From an uncultured delta proteobacterium (GTDB lineage: Bacteria; Myxococcota_A; Polyangia; Polyangiales; Polyangiaceae), in the NCBI GenBank assembly GCA_963850305.1, contig CAWKKR010000011.1:32001-96000 (forward strand): a stretch of DNA of 64,000 bases. Reading direction: 5' to 3'. Under the pieces are notes generated by a model. The model was given only the letters and a program-made list of their open reading frames with translations. It was not told the DNA's origin and did not search any database. The position numbers and the translations under genes are program-made. Positions within the stretch are counted from its first letter, which is position 1, and every line of letters starts with the position of its first letter. Of the stretch, positions 31,357-57,581 are shown piece after piece.

Positions 31357-32529
31357 GTGGCCATTCTTTTCATCGCTCTTTTCAACAGCATCCTCGGTCT
31401 CTCGGTTCTGTTTCCGATCCTGGCGCCTCTCGGGCGCGTTCTCGGTCTCACGGAGCTGCAGGTCGGGAGTCTCTCGACGGCCTATGCGCTGATGCAGCTC
31501 GTCGCGAGCCCGCTCTGGGGCAAGCGGAGCGAGCGCGTCGGTCGAAAGCCGGTGCTCCTTACGGGAGTGCTCGGCTTCGCTGGCGGGTTCCTGGCGTTTG
31601 GCGTCGTGTGCGCGCTCGGGGTGAGCCACGAGCTGTCGCCGACTCCGCTCTACCTTCTTCTCGTACTCTCGCGCGCCGGGGGCGGGATGTTCTCGTCAGC
31701 GACGATCCCGACGGCGCAGGCTTACGTCGCCGACATCACGGGCCGCGAGGATCGGACTTCGGGGATGGCCGTCATCGGCGCCGCGTTCGGGCTCGGGATC
31801 ATCTTCGGCCCGGCTATCGGCGCCGGGCTCGCCACGGTGAGCCTGCTCGCCCCCATCTACTTCTCGGCCGGGCTGGCCCTGGTGAACGCGTTCTTCATCG
31901 CCTTCCGTCTGAAAGAGCCGGAGCGCCATGTGCGGTCGACCCCCCCTGCGCTCGGTCCCGTCGCGATGAAGGTGTGGCCCCTGCTCTGCGTGGGCGTCGC
32001 CGTCAGCCTGGCGTCCGTCGCGATGGAGCAGACCATCGGATTCTATTTCCAGGATCGACTGCACTTGTCACCGCGCGGCACGGCGGAAGCCGTGGGCATT
32101 GCCCTGGTCTCGTACGGCGTCGTCGCTGTCCTCGCTCAGGGGTTCATCGTCCGGAGATTCAAATGGTCCCCGCTGCGTTTGCTGGGGCGCGGGTTACCGT
32201 GCGCGCTCGCCGGCTTCGTAGGACTCATCGTGGCCCACACCATGTTGGGACTGACGCTTGCCCTGACGATTCAAGGGTTTGGTCAGGGACTGGCCGCGCC
32301 CGGAGTTACGGCGGCGATCTCGCTCGGTGCGACCGAAGATGAGCAAGGCGCAGTGGCGGGACTGAACGGCTCCGCGCAAGCACTGGGACGCCTGCTCGGC
32401 CCCGTGGTGGGGACCGGCCTTTACCAGATTCGACCGGAGTACCCGTATGGTTTCAGCGCCGGACTGCTGGTCCTCGTGCTGCTCGTCCTCGGATTCAGCC
32501 CGCGGTTGCGCGGCGCCGTGGGCTCGTAA
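31357..32529 (+). CDS. MFS transporter (TetA/DHA1-like)
   Basis: GKRSERVGRKPV motif A, AQAYVADIT, GAAFGLGIIFGP; ~12 TM segments. Confidence 0.92.
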   Translation: MAILFIALFNSILGLSVLFPILAPLGRVLGLTELQVGSLSTAYALMQLVASPLWGKRSERVGRKPVLLTGVLGFAGGFLAFGVVCALGVSHELSPTPLYLLLVLSRAGGGMFSSATIPTAQAYVADITGREDRTSGMAVIGAAFGLGIIFGPAIGAGLATVSLLAPIYFSAGLALVNAFFIAFRLKEPERHVRSTPPALGPVAMKVWPLLCVGVAVSLASVAMEQTIGFYFQDRLHLSPRGTAEAVGIALVSYGVVAVLAQGFIVRRFKWSPLRLLGRGLPCALAGFVGLIVAHTMLGLTLALTIQGFGQGLAAPGVTAAISLGATEDEQGAVAGLNGSAQALGRLLGPVVGTGLYQIRPEYPYGFSAGLLVLVLLVLGFSPRLRGAVGS

Positions 32530-37183: not shown

Positions 37184-37187
<4 letters not shown>

Positions 37188-40100
37188 ACACCACCTTGGT
37201 GGGCAGACTCCTCGGCTTGGCCTTGATCGTATCCTCCGCGTTCGGTGCGGCGGGCTGCACCACGAGCTCGTTCTGTTTCGCCAACTGCGATGGCCAGGGT
37301 GCGGGTGGCGCGGGCGGCGGGAACAACCAGGGCGGCCAAGCCGGCGTGGTGATCAGCGTGGGGACCGGAGGAGAGGTCATCAAGCTGACGGAGGGCGGGA
37401 CCAGCACGAGCTGCGGCACGGTCGAGATCCCGTGCAACGGGATCGACGACAACTGCAACGGGCAGGTCGACGAAGGCACGGACTACACCGATCCGAGTCA
37501 ATGCGGCACGTGCGCGAACAACTGCCGCGCCTTGCTATCGAACGTGGTTCAGACCTCCATCACGTGCACGCCGCCGCCCGCCGCAGAGCTCGGGACCGTC
37601 GCGGGCATTTGCAATTTCACGCAATGCGCGCAGGACTTCTACAACATCGACGGGAATGCGACGAACGGGTGCGAGTACTACTGTCCGTACGACCCGGACG
37701 GCGGCGTCACGATCGACATCAACAACCACGGGCACTGCGGGATCGACGACAACTGCAACGGCAAGATCGACGAGAATCTCGACACCTGCACGGACCCCAA
37801 CAACTGCGGCGCCTGCGGGAACTCGTGCGTGGTTCCGAACGGCACGGCCAAATGCGTGTCGACCGCGGCTCCGGGCGCAGCCTGCACGAAGGACAACACG
37901 TCATGCCAGGTCGACAAGTGCGACCCCGGCTGGTGGGCGCTCCCGGGCGGTGAGGGGTGCTGGTACCAGTGCACGCCGACGAATAACGGCGTCGAGATCT
38001 GCGATGGCCTCGACAACGACTGCGACAACAAGATCGACGACGCCGACCCCGATCTCCAGACGGGCGACCCGGCCATCGGGCAGAGCTGTCAGGGCGGGGC
38101 CGACGGCATCTGTGCCAATCCGGCCAACGCGGGCGTCAACAAGTGCATCCTGGGGGCGATCGCCTGCTGCGATGTCGACTCGAACAACACTCCGGCGCAG
38201 GACCCGAACCTGCCGGCCACAGGCCTCCTGAACGGCGAGTGTCACGGCACCGTCGGACCATTCGTGATTCATCCCGGCAGTGACCAGGAGACATGCAACG
38301 GCCTCGACGACGACTGCGACGGCACGGTCGACGACAACGTCGTCGACGTCGGCCAAGCCTGCGGTAGCTCCGTCGGCATCTGCAACAAGGGCGTCAATAT
38401 TTGCGTCAATGGTGCGCCCGTCTGCAACGGCGCCACGATGCCGTCGGCGACCGACCCGTGCAACGGCGTGGATGACAACTGCGACGGGGTCATCGACGGC
38501 ATCGTTCCCGCCAGCGGTGCCGTCGCTTGCACGTCCAACGCGAACTGCACGGGCGGCACCATCTGCATGGTCCGCTCGAGCGCCTCGGACAAGGTCTGTG
38601 CAACGCCGGACCCGGAAGTGGGTCAGGCATGCGATCCGCCGCCGACCGCACCCTGCGTGAACGCGTCGGGACAGCAGGTAGATTGTGGAACGGCCGGAGC
38701 GACTCCCGTTCCGCAGCCGTGCAAGGCCGGCACCTGGACGTGCGCCGGAGAGCTCGTGTGCACGGGCGCCGTAGGCAAGACCAGCTCGACCGATGCGTGC
38801 GGCGTGGACTCGAACTGCGACGGGCGCCTCGACGCACAACCCGATCTCCAGAACGACGTCGCAAACTGCGGCGCCTGCGGGCACAACTGCAACGTCGCGG
38901 GGGCACACGAGAACTTCACCTGCGTGAAGGGTGTCTGCACGGTCGGGGCACAAAAGTGCGTCGCCGGATACATCGACTGCGACAGCAACCCGAACGACTG
39001 CGAGCGCGCTTGCACGCCGAACGGCGCCGAGCTGTGCAACGGCGTGGACGACGACTGCAACTGCAAGATCGACGACGGCATCGTCCCACCGGCACCCTCA
39101 CAGGTGTGCGGCGTCTCGCCGAGCGCGTCCGATCCGAACTGCGGTGCCGGCGCAGTTCACGTCGCCTGCACCGGCGGCGCGTGGGGTTGCACTTTCCCGT
39201 CGGGTTATTGCAACCAGGGGACGCCCCCGAGCTGCTCGACGACGGCCGACGTTTGCGACGGCAAGGACAACAACTGCAACGGCGCGACGGACGAAAACCA
39301 GAAGTTGCCGGTTCTGACCACGGGCTACCTCGGAGAGGCGTGCGCGAGCGACGACGGTAAAGCCGCGCCTGGAGACGGCGCGTGCCGCGGCACGGGCGTT
39401 TACGTCTGCAACGGCACGAGCGCGACCAAGTGCAACGCCGTGCGAAACACCAGCGCCGCGAGCCAGGAAGTCTGCGACGGCGTGGACAACGATTGTGACG
39501 GGCTGGTCGACGAGACCTTCAACAACCCCGGGACGAACGCATTCTTCGTCAAACCGGCGGTCGTGAAGGTGAACTCGACGACGTGGATGTACCAATACGA
39601 AGCTAGCCGGCCGAATGCGACCGGATCGGCGCCGGGCACCGGCGACGGTTACTGGTGCACGGGGAGTGGTTGCGCGTCGGGCATCCCGGCCGCGCCCTCG
39701 GGCGTGACACTCGACAAGACTCCCGCTTGCTCGGCCGCCTCGAAGATCCCGTGGTTCAACGTGACGCCCGCCGAGGTCGAGGAAACGTGCAACGCGATGG
39801 GCGGTACCGCGTGCCCCACGAGCGTGTTCACGACGGCGTGCCAGTCGAGCACCGGATCGTGTTCCTGGGGGTACTCGACGGCTTGCACGACGAGCCCCGC
39901 TACGCTCACCGCGGGCGATGGCACCGTCTACTACGACACCAGCAAGACGCCATTCTGCAACCTCGGTCCGTACGACTTCGACGGTACGCCCGGGGCGCCG
40001 AACTCCGACGGCCTTCTGCCGACGGGCGGCGGCGGGATCCTCAAGGGCTGTTATGCGCCGTTCGGCGGCGGTGCCTCGACGAGCCTCTTCGACATTACCG

Positions 40101-40288
40101 GCAACCTGCGCGAGATCACGAAGACCGGCAGCGGCGGGAGCGCAACTTACCCGGTGATGGGTGGCGCGTTCGATACACAGGTGGACACCGGTGCGGCGTG
40201 TACATTCACCTTCTACACGGTGGCGTCGACGTTCAGCCTCTACGACACCGGGTTCCGGTGCTGCTTCACGAGCGATCCGACTCAGTAG
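37184..40288 (+). CDS. Cys-rich lipoprotein with ~9 CDGxDNDCDG repeats, NCGACG repeats and C-terminal FGE-sulfatase/C-type-lectin-like domain
   Basis: Lipobox AAG-C; ATG overlaps the upstream TGA; C-terminal YEASRP...PWFNVT...LFDITGNLRE...GG.F...GFRCC. Confidence 0.88.
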
Positions 40289-40369
40289 ATGCCCATCGGC
40301 GAGAGCGCCTTCCCCGAAGCATGAAGCTCGGGTCGTCGCGTGGACGGTGGAGTCGAGTGTATCCTGCCG

Positions 40370-40530
40370 CGGCGTCGGGAACGAGGTCGGCCGTGACTTG
40401 GTGCCAAGAACCCGTTCAGTAGATGGACCCGGAGCCCTGCGAGCACCCCGAATTGTGACCGCGGGTCGAAAGATCCGGGAGCACGCCTAGTAGACTTCGA
40501 TGACGAGGGCTCCTCTCGACGCGCCGAAAG
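40370..40530 (+). ncRNA. Putative bridge RNA of the IS110 element (boundaries approximate)
   Basis: Non-coding left end contains TCAGTAG (40416-40422, matches left target + core) and then CCTAGTAG (40486-40493, matches left donor + core), the latter inside a ggagc/gctcc stem. Confidence 0.6.
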
Positions 40531-40542
40531 GAGGAGATGGTC

Positions 40543-41769
40543 ATGGAAGTCATGTATCCCCGTTGCGCGGGCCTCGACGTCCACAAGGATAGCGTCGTTG
40601 CCTGCGTGCGCTGCGTCAGCGAACCAACGCGGCGCGAGGTCCGAACGTTCGGCACGACCACACGTAGCCTCTTCGAGCTGGCGGAATGGCTCGAGGAGCA
40701 CGGCGTGACCCACGTGGCGATGGAGGCCACCGGCGTGTACTGGAAGCCGGTCTGGCACATGCTCGAAGGGAGCTTCGAACTCGTGCTCGCGAACGCCCAG
40801 CACATTCGCAACGTGCCAGGGCGCAAGACCGACGTGAACGACGCGACGTGGATCGCCGATCTGCTCGCGCACGGGCTGATCCGCAGCAGTTTCGTGCCTC
40901 CTGCGCGAATCCAGGAGCTGCGCGATCTCACTCGAACGCGCAAGCAGCTCGTGCGAGAAATCGCCCAGCACACGCTGCGCATACAGAAAACGCTCGAGGA
41001 CTCGAACATCAAGGTCGCGAGCGTCCTGTCCAGCGTGCTCGGGACCAGCGGCCGGGCGATGCTCGCCGCTCTCATCGCCGGAGAAGATGACCCCGAGCGC
41101 CTTGCCGATCTCGAGGTCGGTACCGCGCGCAAGAAGAGGGCCGACTTGATCGAAGCGCTGCGCGGGCGGGTTACCCCTCATCACCGAGCCATGCTGAAGC
41201 TGCATCTCGGCGTCATCGGCTCGCTCGAAGGGGCCCTGGCCGAGATCGATGCAGCTGCGGGAAAAGCGCTGGAGCCGATCCGGGCGCACGCCGAGATCCT
41301 GACGACGATGCCGGGAGTGAGTGACATCGTCGCGAACGTGATCGTGGCGGAGATCGGCGTCGACATGTCGCGCTTCCCGTCTGCGGGACACCTCGTGTCC
41401 TGGGCCGGCCTCTGCCCCCGCAACGACGAGAGCGCCGGCAAGCGTCGCTCGACGCGCGTCCGCAAGAGCGCCAACTGGCTCAAGACGACGCTCGTCACAT
41501 CCGCCTGGGCCGCGGTGCGCACGAAGGAAAGCTACCTTCGAGCCCAGTTTCTCCGGCTCAAGTCCCGCCGTGGAGCAAAGAAGGCGATCTTGGCCGTCGC
41601 CGCATCGATGCTCACCGCCGCCTTCTACATGCTCCGCGACGGCACTCCCTACCGCGACCTCGGACCCCATCACTTCGACCGCCGCGACCAGAGCAAGACC
41701 ATCAAACGCCTCGTCCGCCGCTTGACCGACCTCGGCTGCGAAGTCGAGATCAAACCTCATGCGGCGTAG
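40543..41769 (+). CDS. IS110 family transposase/recombinase
   Basis: DEDD RuvC-like motifs GLDVHK, MEATG, KTDVNDA; Tnp-domain serine motif PRNDESAGK; AAGGAGG RBS. Confidence 0.96.
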   Translation: MEVMYPRCAGLDVHKDSVVACVRCVSEPTRREVRTFGTTTRSLFELAEWLEEHGVTHVAMEATGVYWKPVWHMLEGSFELVLANAQHIRNVPGRKTDVNDATWIADLLAHGLIRSSFVPPARIQELRDLTRTRKQLVREIAQHTLRIQKTLEDSNIKVASVLSSVLGTSGRAMLAALIAGEDDPERLADLEVGTARKKRADLIEALRGRVTPHHRAMLKLHLGVIGSLEGALAEIDAAAGKALEPIRAHAEILTTMPGVSDIVANVIVAEIGVDMSRFPSAGHLVSWAGLCPRNDESAGKRRSTRVRKSANWLKTTLVTSAWAAVRTKESYLRAQFLRLKSRRGAKKAILAVAASMLTAAFYMLRDGTPYRDLGPHHFDRRDQSKTIKRLVRRLTDLGCEVEIKPHAA

Positions 41770-41826
41770 AGCTTCCTAGTAGTTCCGCACCGACGAGCAC
41801 CGTCGTCCCCGAGGGATCAAAGAGCT

Positions 41827-42070
41827 GCGGAACTACGCGAGCGCAGCGAGCGCGCCGAAGGCGGCGGGGGAGCGGTCGCGGAGCGAGCCGCGGGGGCAAG
41901 GCTCCCTTTGTCAATAGTAGCGCAGCGAGTACCGGGGGGAGGGGTTGCGTAGCAAGCCCCGGGGGGCGGGCAACGCCTGGAAGGCCCCCCTTGAGCAAAG
42001 CGAGCCCGCCGAAGGCGGCGGGGGGAGCGGTTGCGAAGCAAGTCGCGGGGGCCAAAGGTCCCCTTTTGTC
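41827..42070. repeat. Cluster of three REP-like multi-hairpin repeats
   Basis: Three diverged units (~41827-41910, 41920-41992, 41995-42070); the first starts gcggaactacgcgagcgcagcgagc, identical to 57204. Confidence 0.85.
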
Positions 42071-43067
42071 AGTGACGCTCAGGAGCGCCCGAGGCTTTCG
42101 ACCCGACACGGCGGCGGAACGCCTTCGTCGCCGGAGCGGTGTTCCGGGTGCGAGCACCAGCGCACTCACGGCGCGCCTCCGCGAGCCGCGCCGTGAGGTG
42201 CTCGACGAGAAAGTCCCGGAGCAGCGCCACACGCGAAGGGACGTGGACCGACGTCGGCAGGACGACGTGCACACCCCCACCCTCGAACGTGTATCCGCCC
42301 AGCACCAGCTCGAGTTCGTCGCGGCGAACGAACTCGCGCGCCAGCGCCACCGGAAGCAGGGCGATGCCCGCGCCGGCCGCCGCCAACCGGCCGACGAATT
42401 CCATCTCGTCAGCCGAGACCCTGCTCGAAACCTCAATCGACTCATCGCCGTTCGGTCCGCTCATGGTCCACGTCGCCCGTCCGCCGCGGCCGCGAAACAG
42501 GACGCACCCGTGGTGACGAAGGTCCGCGAGTTTCTCGGGGCGACCGCGCCGTCCGAGGTACGACGGTGCTCCGAACAGCGCCATGCTCGCCGCTCCAATC
42601 CGGCGTGCGACCAGCGAAGAGTCCACCAGTTTACCGGCACGAATCGCGAGGTCGACCCCCTCCGAAATGAGGTCCACGTTCCGCGCGGTGAGGATGAGCT
42701 CCACCTGAATCTTCGGGTACCGCGTAAGGAATTGGGCCACGATCTCGGGCAAGCCGAGCGACTGCGAGTCGGGGGGGCCGGTGAGGCGGACGGTGCCCCT
42801 CGGCTCGGAGCCATCCTCCTTCGCTGCATTCGCGGCGTCATCGACGTCCGCTACGGCCCGGCGCACGCGCTCGAAGAACGCCTGCCCGGCGTCGGTCGTC
42901 GCGAGCCGTCGGGTCGATCTGTGAAGGAGCCGGACGCCGAGAGATTCCTCGAGCCGCGCCACGCCACGACTCACCGACGACTTCTGGACGCCGAGCTTTT
43001 CTGCGACAGCGGTGAAGCTTCCCAGTTGCACGACTTGAACGAACAGGGAGACGTCGTTGTAGTCCAC
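42069..43067 (-). CDS. LysR family transcriptional regulator
   Basis: GSFTAVAEKLGVQKSSVSRGVARLEESLGVRLLHRSTR HTH; EGVDLAIRAG. Confidence 0.95.
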   Translation of the reverse strand: MDYNDVSLFVQVVQLGSFTAVAEKLGVQKSSVSRGVARLEESLGVRLLHRSTRRLATTDAGQAFFERVRRAVADVDDAANAAKEDGSEPRGTVRLTGPPDSQSLGLPEIVAQFLTRYPKIQVELILTARNVDLISEGVDLAIRAGKLVDSSLVARRIGAASMALFGAPSYLGRRGRPEKLADLRHHGCVLFRGRGGRATWTMSGPNGDESIEVSSRVSADEMEFVGRLAAAGAGIALLPVALAREFVRRDELELVLGGYTFEGGGVHVVLPTSVHVPSRVALLRDFLVEHLTARLAEARRECAGARTRNTAPATKAFRRRVGSKASGAPERH

Positions 43068-56991: not shown

Positions 56992-57203
56992 CGGTGAAGC
57001 TCCCGTCTCGGAAATCCGCGAAAAGTACGGCCTTGTATAAGGTTTCACGGTATCACCCCCTAAAATCCCCTGTCAACGCGAGTTCCTTCTTCCTGAAGTG
57101 TCTCATGGAGGCGATCTCTTCCGAGACGGCCCAGCCACGCTTCTCGCTCCGCATCGACGACAGCATCTCGACGACGCCGTCGTCTCCGAAGAATCAACGA
57201 GGC

Positions 57204-57496
57204 GCGGAACTACGCGAGCGCAGCGAGCCCGCCGAAGGCGGCGGGGGAGCGGTCGCGAAGCGAGCCGCGGGGGTCAAGACCCCCTTGCGAGCGCGAGCCC
57301 GCCGAAGGCGGCGGGGGAGCGGTCGCGAAGCGAGCCGCGGGGGTCAAGACCCCCTTGCGAGCGCGAGCCCGCCGAAGGCGGCGGGGGAGCGGTCGCGAAG
57401 CGAGCCGCGGGGGTCAAGACCCCCTTGCGAGCGCGAGCCCGCCGAAGGCGGCGGGGGAGCGGTCGCGAAGCGAGCCGCGGGGGTCAAGACCCCCTT
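57204..57496. repeat. Tandem array of four 70-bp REP-like multi-hairpin units
   Basis: Unit gcgagcccgccgaaggcggcgggggagcggtcgcgaagcgagccgcgggggtcaagacccccttgcgagc repeated exactly from 57223 (last copy ends at cccctt), preceded by gcggaactacgcgagcgca. Confidence 0.95.
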
Positions 57497-57581
57497 TCCT
57501 AGTAGACTTCCTGGGCCGCTCGTGGGTTCTTCGGTGGGAGGTTCCGTGCCCGGAGGAGAAGTCCGTCTCCATTGCTCGACT

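Follow-up and report, generated by a model that had tools for sequence, protein, structure and literature searches.

A 64,000-nucleotide (nt) stretch of DNA from an uncultured delta proteobacterium of the Polyangiaceae (the window; positions 32,001–96,000 of the forward strand of contig CAWKKR010000011.1, assembly GCA_963850305.1) carries, at its positions 40289–41782, what is very likely an intact, active-looking insertion sequence (IS) of the IS110 group whose left end encodes a bridge RNA of the IS621 type. This assignment, made by sequence comparison, is carried mainly by two short segments of the non-coding left end, one of which follows the host DNA next to each homologous element and the other the element's own right end, and both of which occupy fixed positions in a conserved RNA structure. 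The element is a further case of a kind of system known since 2024 and leaves the known mechanism unchanged. A second, miniature repeat, here called R, adjoins most copies of the element and appears to provide its targets.

The element, its boundaries and its genomic copies

The element and its left target are made up as follows.

40282–40288, forward strand: left target half-site and core, TCAGT-AG, in host DNA (TC precedes AGTAG in seven of eight copies; the DNA further upstream is unique)
40289–40536, forward strand: non-coding left end of 248 nt, presumed bridge-RNA gene (conserved and alignable in 33 homologous elements, with compensatory changes in the consensus structure)
40537–41769, forward strand: gene for an IS110-family DEDD/serine recombinase of 410 amino acids (Pfam domains, IS621 alignment; relatives start at the ATG at 40543)
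41770–41782, forward strand: right end of 11 nt (..CTTCCTAGT) and right core AG (41781–41782), identical in all eight copies, the one with another right flank among them

The left junction, gactcAGTAGatgccc, is read at 40279–40294 and the right junction, cttcctAGTAGttccgc, at 41772–41788. The left end (LE) of the element starts at 40289 and the right end (RE) stops at 41780, with an AG core on both sides; including the right core the element ends at 41782, and the end coordinate of 41789 given in an earlier note on this DNA lies 7 nt inside the flank. The junction sequences themselves, and the copies of both that the same note had pointed out inside the left end, are borne out by the sequence: TCAGTAGATG stands at the junction (40282–40291) and again inside the left end (40416–40425), and CCTAGTAG stands at the right end (41775–41782) and again at 40486–40493. 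Both are far more frequent in the window than chance would give, with two occurrences of TCAGTAGATG against 0.03 expected (0 of 100 shuffles reach two) and three of CCTAGTAG against 0.06 expected (0 of 100 shuffles reach three), the third, at 57498, being the right end of another R repeat.

The assembly (6.26 Mb, 11 contigs, 66% GC) holds eight copies of the element, and aligning them at their flanks, a check proposed at the outset, reveals boundaries common to the copies. Similarity starts at AGTAG-ATGCCC in all eight, with unique left flanks; the right flank is an R repeat in seven copies and unrelated DNA in the remaining one, which still ends ..cttcctAGTAG. All that the flanks of the eight copies have in common is a left (TC)AGTAG and a right AGTAG, a short core and no longer target duplication. 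Six copies are uninterrupted and differ from each other at 0–5 of 1499 positions (15 pairwise comparisons), and the guide segments described below are untouched by any difference between copies and the same in all of them. A long left end (248 nt) combined with a short right end (11 nt) is as in the IS110 group, and no terminal inverted repeats are obvious by eye at the element ends, no search aimed at inverted repeats having been run.

Matches to PF01548 in the genome are confined to the eight copies, each of which has an open frame. In the window, the open reading frame (ORF) at 40537–41769 matches PF01548 (E = 5.3e-28; residues 11–155, the N-terminal DEDD, RuvC-like domain) and PF02371 (Transposase_20; E = 1.4e-22), and aligns with the IS621 transposase (8wt6; E = 1.1e-12) at low similarity over two stretches. 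Opposite residues D14, E63, D99, D102 and S299 the IS621 chain has D, E, D, D and S, with S299 at the serine of the ES motif, and we take the aligned D/E/D/D residues, from their motifs, to be the catalytic residues of IS621. The Pfam domains and the IS621 alignment uphold the initial description of the DEDD and serine motifs as intact. For IS621 itself, S241 has been confirmed as a catalytic residue (PMC11208158).

Guide segments covary with host flanks and right ends

Relatives of the transposase, 47–85% identical, are encoded at 41 loci from metagenome-assembled genomes (MAGs) labelled Polyangiaceae, Anaeromyxobacteraceae, Acidobacteriota, Dehalococcoidia, Alphaproteobacteria and others. 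Four extra copies on one Dehalococcoidia chromosome, one locus without upstream DNA and four loci whose protein match starts inside the gene were left out before alignment, and 32 loci together with the window gave an alignment of 33 left ends. These align well and show two short variable patches between invariant blocks, in which the two long guides lie.

40415–40424, forward strand: long 3′ guide of the target loop, TTCAGT, followed by the AG core and AT, a handshake-type pair equal to the first 2 nt of the element
40485–40493, forward strand: long 3′ guide of the donor loop, GCCTAGT, followed by AG; equal to the right end and core, and also to the right end of R repeats

The first patch follows the pattern CCCG-(6 nt)-AG-(2 nt)-GGACC (40411–40429 in the window), and its segment 40414–40424 corresponds in each element to that element's own left flank, core and first 2 nt. 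An exact match of at least 8 nt to the target guide is found in the element's own 190-nt upstream zone for 28 of the 33 elements, compared with 2 of 678 non-cognate guide/element pairs. Examples include AGCCTAGTT (L033), TAGCTAGTT (L035), GTTCGGAATA (L036), AGCTAAGTT (L044), AATTAAGTC (L056) and TAACAAGTG (L064), and the guide differs between L048 and L051 (GGTCGAGTT versus GGTCAAGTT). The 2 nt that follow the core in this guide equal the first and second nt of the LE in 21/22 and 20/22 elements, respectively, the variants seen being AT (window), TC, TG and AC. A relative in a sister genome, 70% identical, carries the guide CCAGGA-AG-TC, which fits its junction ACAGGAAGTC.

The second patch, GCACG-(6–7 nt)-AG (40480–40493 in the window), equals each element's right end and core. 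Here 20 of 29 elements have an exact match of at least 7 nt within their own right-end zone, as against 20 of 550 non-cognate pairs, and the misses are mostly truncated or decayed genes with the right end outside the searched zone. Examples of donor guides are CTTACTAG, GTAGCAAT, GAGGGAG, TGGATAG, CGGGTAG and CTTTGTAG. The earlier note had taken these two left-end segments for bridge-RNA guides, target loop before donor loop, and had held that a lack of covariation with targets and donors in homologous elements would speak against this; in the homologues examined both guides do covary, as the counts above indicate.

Right ends of nearly all relatives also show a conserved (C/T)TTC before 5–6 variable nt (for example agCTTCctagtag and gtTTTCgagggag). 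This motif lies outside the guide-matched part and may be a subterminal element recognised by the protein.

Structure of the left end

Folding of the left end in alignment with its homologues, likewise suggested beforehand, was done with RNAalifold on 24 rows picked from the 33, near-duplicates and poorly aligned rows having been dropped. The consensus comprises a 5′ stem-loop, an outer helix P1, a helix P2 that belongs to the target loop, a distal hairpin and an 8-base-pair (bp) helix P3 that belongs to the donor loop.

40298–40309, forward strand: 5′ stem-loop GGCG..CGCC (helix 1; changes on both sides in 3/3 pairs; a module that R also has at its left end)
40372–40378, forward strand: 5′ strand of P1, pairing with 40516–40522 and enclosing both guide loops (helix 2; 4/6 pairs compensatory, 90% of cells paired)
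40385–40388, forward strand: 5′ strand of P2, GGTC, pairing with GACC at 40426–40429 and closing the target-binding loop (helix 3; 94% of cells paired)
40399–40414, forward strand: distal hairpin of the target loop, TGGTGC..CCCG (helix 4; largely invariant, with 97% of cells paired)
40431–40438, forward strand: 5′ strand of P3, GGAGCCCT, pairing with 40506–40513 and closing the donor-binding loop (helix 5; 7/8 pairs compensatory)

In this consensus, 91% of cells are paired, compared with 31–49% when the partners are slid by 1–3 columns. Changes on both sides occur in 17 of 26 pairs, and the number of cells with such changes is 88, against 10–23 in the slid controls; none of 500 shuffles reaches any of the observed structure measures. 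Variants of P2 seen by eye in the alignment include GGCC/GGCC (L048, L066) and CGCC/GGCG (L059). The target and donor guide segments take fixed positions in the internal loops. The consensus, being derived from the alignment, is that of the DNA-encoded sequence. A scan of 39800–42300 against Rfam (E ≤ 10) returned no family for the left end and only a chance microRNA match.

A relic on the minus strand at G000:C1:765275–765368 (L086) agrees with the left-end model over the model's 5′ half only (nhmmer E = 3.5e-7). Recognisable in it are the P1 and P2 strands, a short guide GGTTGAA-CT and the distal hairpin, followed by sequence like the left end of another element; it may be what is left of a second bridge-RNA gene that has decayed and lacks a transposase.

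Core and orientation

All that the target and donor patches share throughout the clade is AG (AT in L036 and L055), the AGT before it falling in the variable parts of the guides. The core is therefore this second AG alone and not the 5-bp AGTAG. The 5′ strand of each loop, which leads up to the distal hairpin, has CT as its last 2 nt (40397–40398 in the window), and the 3′ strand ends in AG; in L036 and L055, with an AT core, the 5′ target strand ends in AT. A natural core variant within the clade is seen in a relative 51% identical that is present in five copies on one Dehalococcoidia chromosome (L036–L039 and L060), in which AT is found in both guides and at both junctions, and the 5′ target strand ends in AT accordingly.

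In the portion of the IS621 report used here (PMC11208158), the loop runs in the order stem, left target guide (LTG, 50–58), stem-loop, right target guide (RTG, 77–80) and handshake guide (HSG, 81–82); the first core base is bound by G80, and positions 81–82, the handshake guides, pair with the donor once strands have been exchanged. The plan of the RNA deduced here is the same, with the 3′ guide pairing with the strand antisense to the transposase, and the AG core would therefore be the canonical CT seen on the other strand. The earlier note's view of a core containing TAG or AG "rather than CT" thus gives way to a simpler one, in which AG is CT on the opposite strand and AGT is part of the guide. 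On balance we favour the interpretation that the transposase gene is reversed relative to the CT-bearing strand, that what had first been read as left guides would be guides of the RTG and right donor guide (RDG) type with a handshake extension, and that the end proximal to the bridge RNA would correspond to the IS621 left donor; it counts against this interpretation that the comparison with IS621 is one of text description and not of sequence. When read on the CT strand, the hairpin of R lies 5′ of the core, as in the repetitive extragenic palindromic (REP) target described for ISPpu10, and this is consistent with an inverted orientation.

Candidate short 5′ guides

Two further segments, on the 5′ strands of the loops, are candidates for the short guides.

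40390–40398, forward strand: short 5′ guide of the target loop, ..GTGA-CT, in which CT complements the core and the preceding nt face the right flank (partial covariation with right flanks)
40450–40454, forward strand: GAATT within the donor loop's 5′ strand, a candidate for the short donor guide (AG-TT pairing with one U.G; conserved A(C/T)T)

In an unbiased column-by-column search for the complement of the right flanks, only the nt directly before CT stood out, which in 10 of 16 elements complements the first right-flank nt, and longer matches are seen in L050 (6/6), L051 (5/6) and L043 (5/6). By permutation over 17 elements, the first two positions form 17 of 34 possible Watson-Crick pairs compared with 8.6 expected (p = 0.0016), and the first four form 30 of 68 compared with 18.5 expected. 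The registers of L036 and L055 are off by one in this test, and four near-duplicate L040-type rows were kept; these rows count as misses at +1, so that keeping them tells against the result. A search for a column complementary to the first 9 nt of the element returned only the same-sense matches at 40423/40424 and no covarying complementary column.

Neither of the two candidates first proposed for the right-hand guides survives in its original form. GGAAC at 40378, tried as the right target guide, was rejected, as it lies at the P1/P2 junction and does not follow the right flanks, L032 having the same letters and a different right flank. The other, cgaatt at 40449, is conserved in the donor loop and is at best a short donor guide for the core and one further position.

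The R repeat and the choice of target

41783–41921, forward strand: R repeat next to the element, with a hairpin module, GTAGTTCCGCA...TGCGGAACTAC, and GC-rich unit(s); the target of the insertion is the left junction of this repeat

R starts TTCCGCATCGACG.. directly after AGTAG and consists of the hairpin GTAGTTCCGCA/TGCGGAACTAC and one to several GC-rich units of ~70 bp. In a scan of 41 R left ends, the five preceding positions are A in 34, G in 39, T in 36, A in 40 and G in 39, and the DNA upstream is unique. A recognisable right end is found within 1.5 kb of 25 of 40 left ends, with lengths of 95–630 bp, and at least 16 copies end cccctttcCTAGTAG followed by unique DNA. R is without a transposase gene, and its right end, ..TTCCTAGT-AG, is common to R and the IS and is what the donor guide reads. 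An early impression that T never follows the right end of R was dropped after a fuller list of R copies. Six of six genomes searched in the genus contain R, with 1–39 matches each, whereas the IS at ≥99% identity is found here only.

Free copies of TCAGTAGTT, which combines 5 nt of the left target with the core and 2 nt, number 11 in the genome, and all 11 are R left junctions, 9 of them outside IS copies. That seven of eight IS copies stand directly upstream of R is thus explained by the only full target matches in the genome being R left junctions. The same arrangement would be expected if the IS and the adjacent R moved as one modular unit, with R as a passenger and not a target; the two end alike, and for ISPpu9 a module resembling a MITE (a miniature transposable element with inverted repeats) has been described downstream of the transposase gene in 5/7 copies, with joint circles (PMC12288879, in the part used here). 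We regard such a unit as decidedly improbable. The IS bodies are nearly identical, whereas the R copies beside the six uninterrupted IS copies show 5–15 differences over ~126 positions and are unequal in length (356, 563 and 630 bp), which implies that R is older than the insertions and was not carried along; moreover, one IS copy is without R, and the genus-wide R is set against an IS found at ≥99% identity in this genome only.

An identical 125-bp repeat, R′, lies inside the guide-coding DNA of two IS copies (C5:149076–150705 and C8:718132–719760). It reads ccgttcAGTAG-ttccgc...cctttcct-AGTAG-atggacc, and the six copies that are uninterrupted at this point make it a comparison of filled and empty site. 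The site, TTCAGT-AG-AT, mimics the left half of the target. Since the interrupted copy is found at two loci with different flanks and an identical R′, it has moved after the interruption; its target loop is split by 125 nt, and it presumably moved using RNA from other copies, in trans.

R looks like a MITE-like, IS110-derived miniature element. It may instead be a REP-like palindromic repeat of the host, targeted by the IS and owing the likeness of its ends to target mimicry or chance, and several features suit this: REP hairpins are known targets of the IS110-family elements ISPpu9 and ISPpu10 in the literature cited below, R starts with a hairpin and its tandem 70-bp units are untypical of MITEs, R, found genus-wide, is old and the IS recent, and no clear target common to the right flanks of the R copies is seen. 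We consider a host repeat rather unlikely, however, given that R′ sits exactly at the target mimic with AGTAG on both sides, that nt 1–42 of the IS, the 5′ stem-loop included, have an 86% identical counterpart in an R variant of a sister genome, that at least 16 copies stop at the same sequence before unique DNA, and that tandem R–R junctions resemble re-insertion at the left junction. Mobilisation of R in trans by the recombinase and bridge RNA of this IS may be proposed on indirect grounds, in that its gene is the sole one of the IS110 family in the genome and its donor guide fits the right end of R.

Other copies of R may be described here. At G000:C7:290978–291390, three R units stand in direct tandem with junctions ..ctttNttAGTAG-ttccgc, as expected if R re-inserts at an existing R left junction. 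A second R in the window, at 57148–57505, has four to five tandem GC-rich units of ~70 bp; its left end is degenerate (ctccgcatcgacg) and not preceded by AGTAG, and its right end is canonical (ccccctttcCTAGTAG) and followed by unique DNA. Tandem Repeats Finder gave no rows for 41700–42500. Upstream of the element, the ORF at 37184–40288 encodes a Cys-rich protein of 1034 amino acids with five MopE-type putative metal-binding repeats (PF11617), and its stop codon TAG is 40286–40288. The AGTAG of the insertion site thus includes this stop codon, and the ORF is truncated by neither R nor the IS. Insertion at stop codons is not enriched among R copies: 10 of 40 R left junctions end an open frame of at least 100 codons, compared with 7 and 16 of 40 in the other frames.

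Apart from the variants TC, TG and AC, the relatives and R have TT after the core and at the handshake position, and the IS of the window has AT at both. For IS621, handshake pairing with the cognate target is described as blocking exchange (PMC11208158). Speculatively, a coordinated change to AT would make the ..AG-TT junctions of R permissive and the element's own ..AG-AT junction non-permissive. The wider proposition that the clade, represented by MAGs of Myxococcota, Acidobacteriota, Chloroflexota and Alphaproteobacteria, is an inverted bridge-recombinase lineage with long 3′ guides, which here has also co-evolved with R through a coordinated T-to-A change, is conceivable but more doubtful than probable.

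Weighing the bridge-RNA assignment

Several observations weigh against the assignment of the left end as a bridge-RNA gene. Among the sequencing runs carrying the sequence no RNA run is listed. A sigma-70 consensus promoter is absent from 40150–42000, and the best promoter pair at the computed circle junction scores 7/12 and lies wholly in the coding right part, both scans applying the Escherichia coli consensus to a myxobacterial genome. Contigs of four soil-metagenome runs, which represent the IS in part and at low depth over 39900–42200, gave no circle junction, no empty site and no joint across the element; the left junction is spanned, with no differences, by a single contig of 211 nt (40231–40441). 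The single-sequence fold of 40284–40545 is no stabler than that of shuffles (z = 0.30), a measure that is uninformative in DNA of 66% GC. In the homologue set, the 2 nt after the core of the donor guide show no match pattern with the right flanks. The short target guide has no match to the right flank in 4 of 16 relatives (L033, L034, L044 and L057), and against the window's own right flank its T pairs at +1 and a G.T follows at +2, then a mismatch. The candidate A(C/T)T of the donor loop is conserved without covariation and unchanged in elements whose LE starts with A (window and L071). Finally, the full 16-nt predicted target has no match in the genome at ≤1 mismatch and two at ≤2.

The first of these points and the fold, together with the one real nested insertion at exactly the position of the target guide, would also suit internal junction copies that are sites at the DNA level, either subterminal repeats bound by the transposase or scars of nested insertion, and not RNA guides. 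This explanation is exceedingly improbable. The target segment fits host DNA outside the element that is different in every lineage, which is not predicted by a protein-binding repeat inside the element; the segments lie at fixed positions of internal loops in a structure with many compensatory pairs; and the enzyme family has been shown experimentally to use such RNA (PMC11208160, PMC11208158).

A recent but now silent family, with copies intact through youth and guides that no longer direct insertion in the host, would be in keeping with the lack of a circle junction or empty site in the metagenome contigs, with the absence of the full-length predicted target, and with the 9-bp target matches outside IS copies that are still unoccupied. 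This too is improbable, given the open frames in all eight copies and the near identity of the uninterrupted ones, the movement of the R′-interrupted copy after its interruption and the identity of the guide segments throughout. An active-looking element with a guide-bearing left end remains the interpretation that we prefer.

Proposed mechanism

From the anatomy of the element, the covariation of guides with flanks and of paired positions with each other, the copy number and the census of targets, we infer the following course, which extends to RNA production, its strand polarity, the chemistry of exchange and the mobilisation of R. The left end would be transcribed into a bridge RNA in which the outer helix P1 surrounds two internal loops closed by stems. 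In the target loop, the 3′ strand TTCAGT-AG-AT (40415–40424) would pair with the complement of the left flank and core, the 2 nt past the core, which match the element's own first 2 nt, acting as a handshake-type extension, and the 5′ strand ..GA-CT (40395–40398) would pair with the core and the first 1–2 nt of the right flank. The donor loop's 3′ strand, GCCTAGT-AG (40485–40493), would recognise the right end and core. The DEDD/serine recombinase would then exchange strands at AG/CT between the circular RE–LE junction and the target (T)TCAGT-AG-TT.

Relation to known systems and significance

The element resembles IS621, as far as the cited parts of its description go (PMC11208160, PMC11208158), in its recombinase with DEDD and Tnp(Ser) parts, its long non-coding left end and its short right end. 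Both have a target loop followed by a donor loop, each composed of a 5′ guide ending in CU (in the present element a candidate guide), a stem-loop and a 3′ guide ending in AG, with two handshake nt after the 3′ target guide that covary with the donor and a dinucleotide core within the guides, and the effective target is ~9–11 bp. Unlike in IS621, the core is AG in the direction of the transposase; the long guides (6–7 + 2 nt) are those of the 3′, RTG/RDG type and the candidate 5′ guides are short; the end proximal to the bridge RNA would take the role of the IS621 right end; the donor guide is contiguous; and no promoter is recognisable at the junction. The copy with right flank CCCCGT and the R′ insertion fit only the left half of the target, which is reminiscent of the half-match recombination seen in the off-target pattern of IS621 (bioRxiv 10.64898/2026.08.31.748434, in part), the events here being natural ones deduced from sequence.

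A fixed insertion point in an extragenic repeat that forms a hairpin is a feature shared with the IS110-group elements ISPpu10 and ISPpu9 of Pseudomonas putida (bioRxiv 10.64898/2026.03.19.712850; PMC12288879; both in the parts cited). ISPpu9 moreover has a MITE-like module, MITEPpu9, with IS-like ends, often directly downstream of the transposase gene (PMC12288879), and action in trans is reported. ISPpu10 and ISPpu9 are described with a CT core in transposase orientation and with REP stems as targets, whereas here the core is AG and R is 130–630 bp long with tandem 70-bp units. R also differs from the ISPpu9 module in that it was in the genus before the IS, does not move together with it, its copies being divergent, and has inserted into the guide-coding DNA of the IS. 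In the literature found on the interplay of IS110 elements with miniature repeats, ISPpu9 is a precedent and nothing closer was met with.

The added interest of the element is modest and lies in the probably opposite orientation of the gene, the strong handshake signal and the interplay with a miniature repeat of IS110 type. Natural variation alone confirms bridge-RNA guides that had been spotted by eye in a first pass, and the 33 elements provide a clean covariation set for a bridge-RNA clade that matches no Rfam family. For the engineering of bridge recombinases, they offer a layout in which both loops have a long, contiguous 3′ guide and the 2-nt handshake stands out clearly, and in which the orientation of the gene may be opposite. 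For the biology of mobile elements, this is an IS110 element whose usable targets in the host stem from an older miniature repeat with IS110-type ends, together with a natural example of insertion into guide-coding DNA that mimics a target. If the wider proposition of an inverted lineage that has co-evolved with R is true, R would share the donor guide of the IS, and the T-to-A change, made in the first nt of the element and at the handshake position, would let the IS use the left junction of R as its only full target and no longer match its own left junction.

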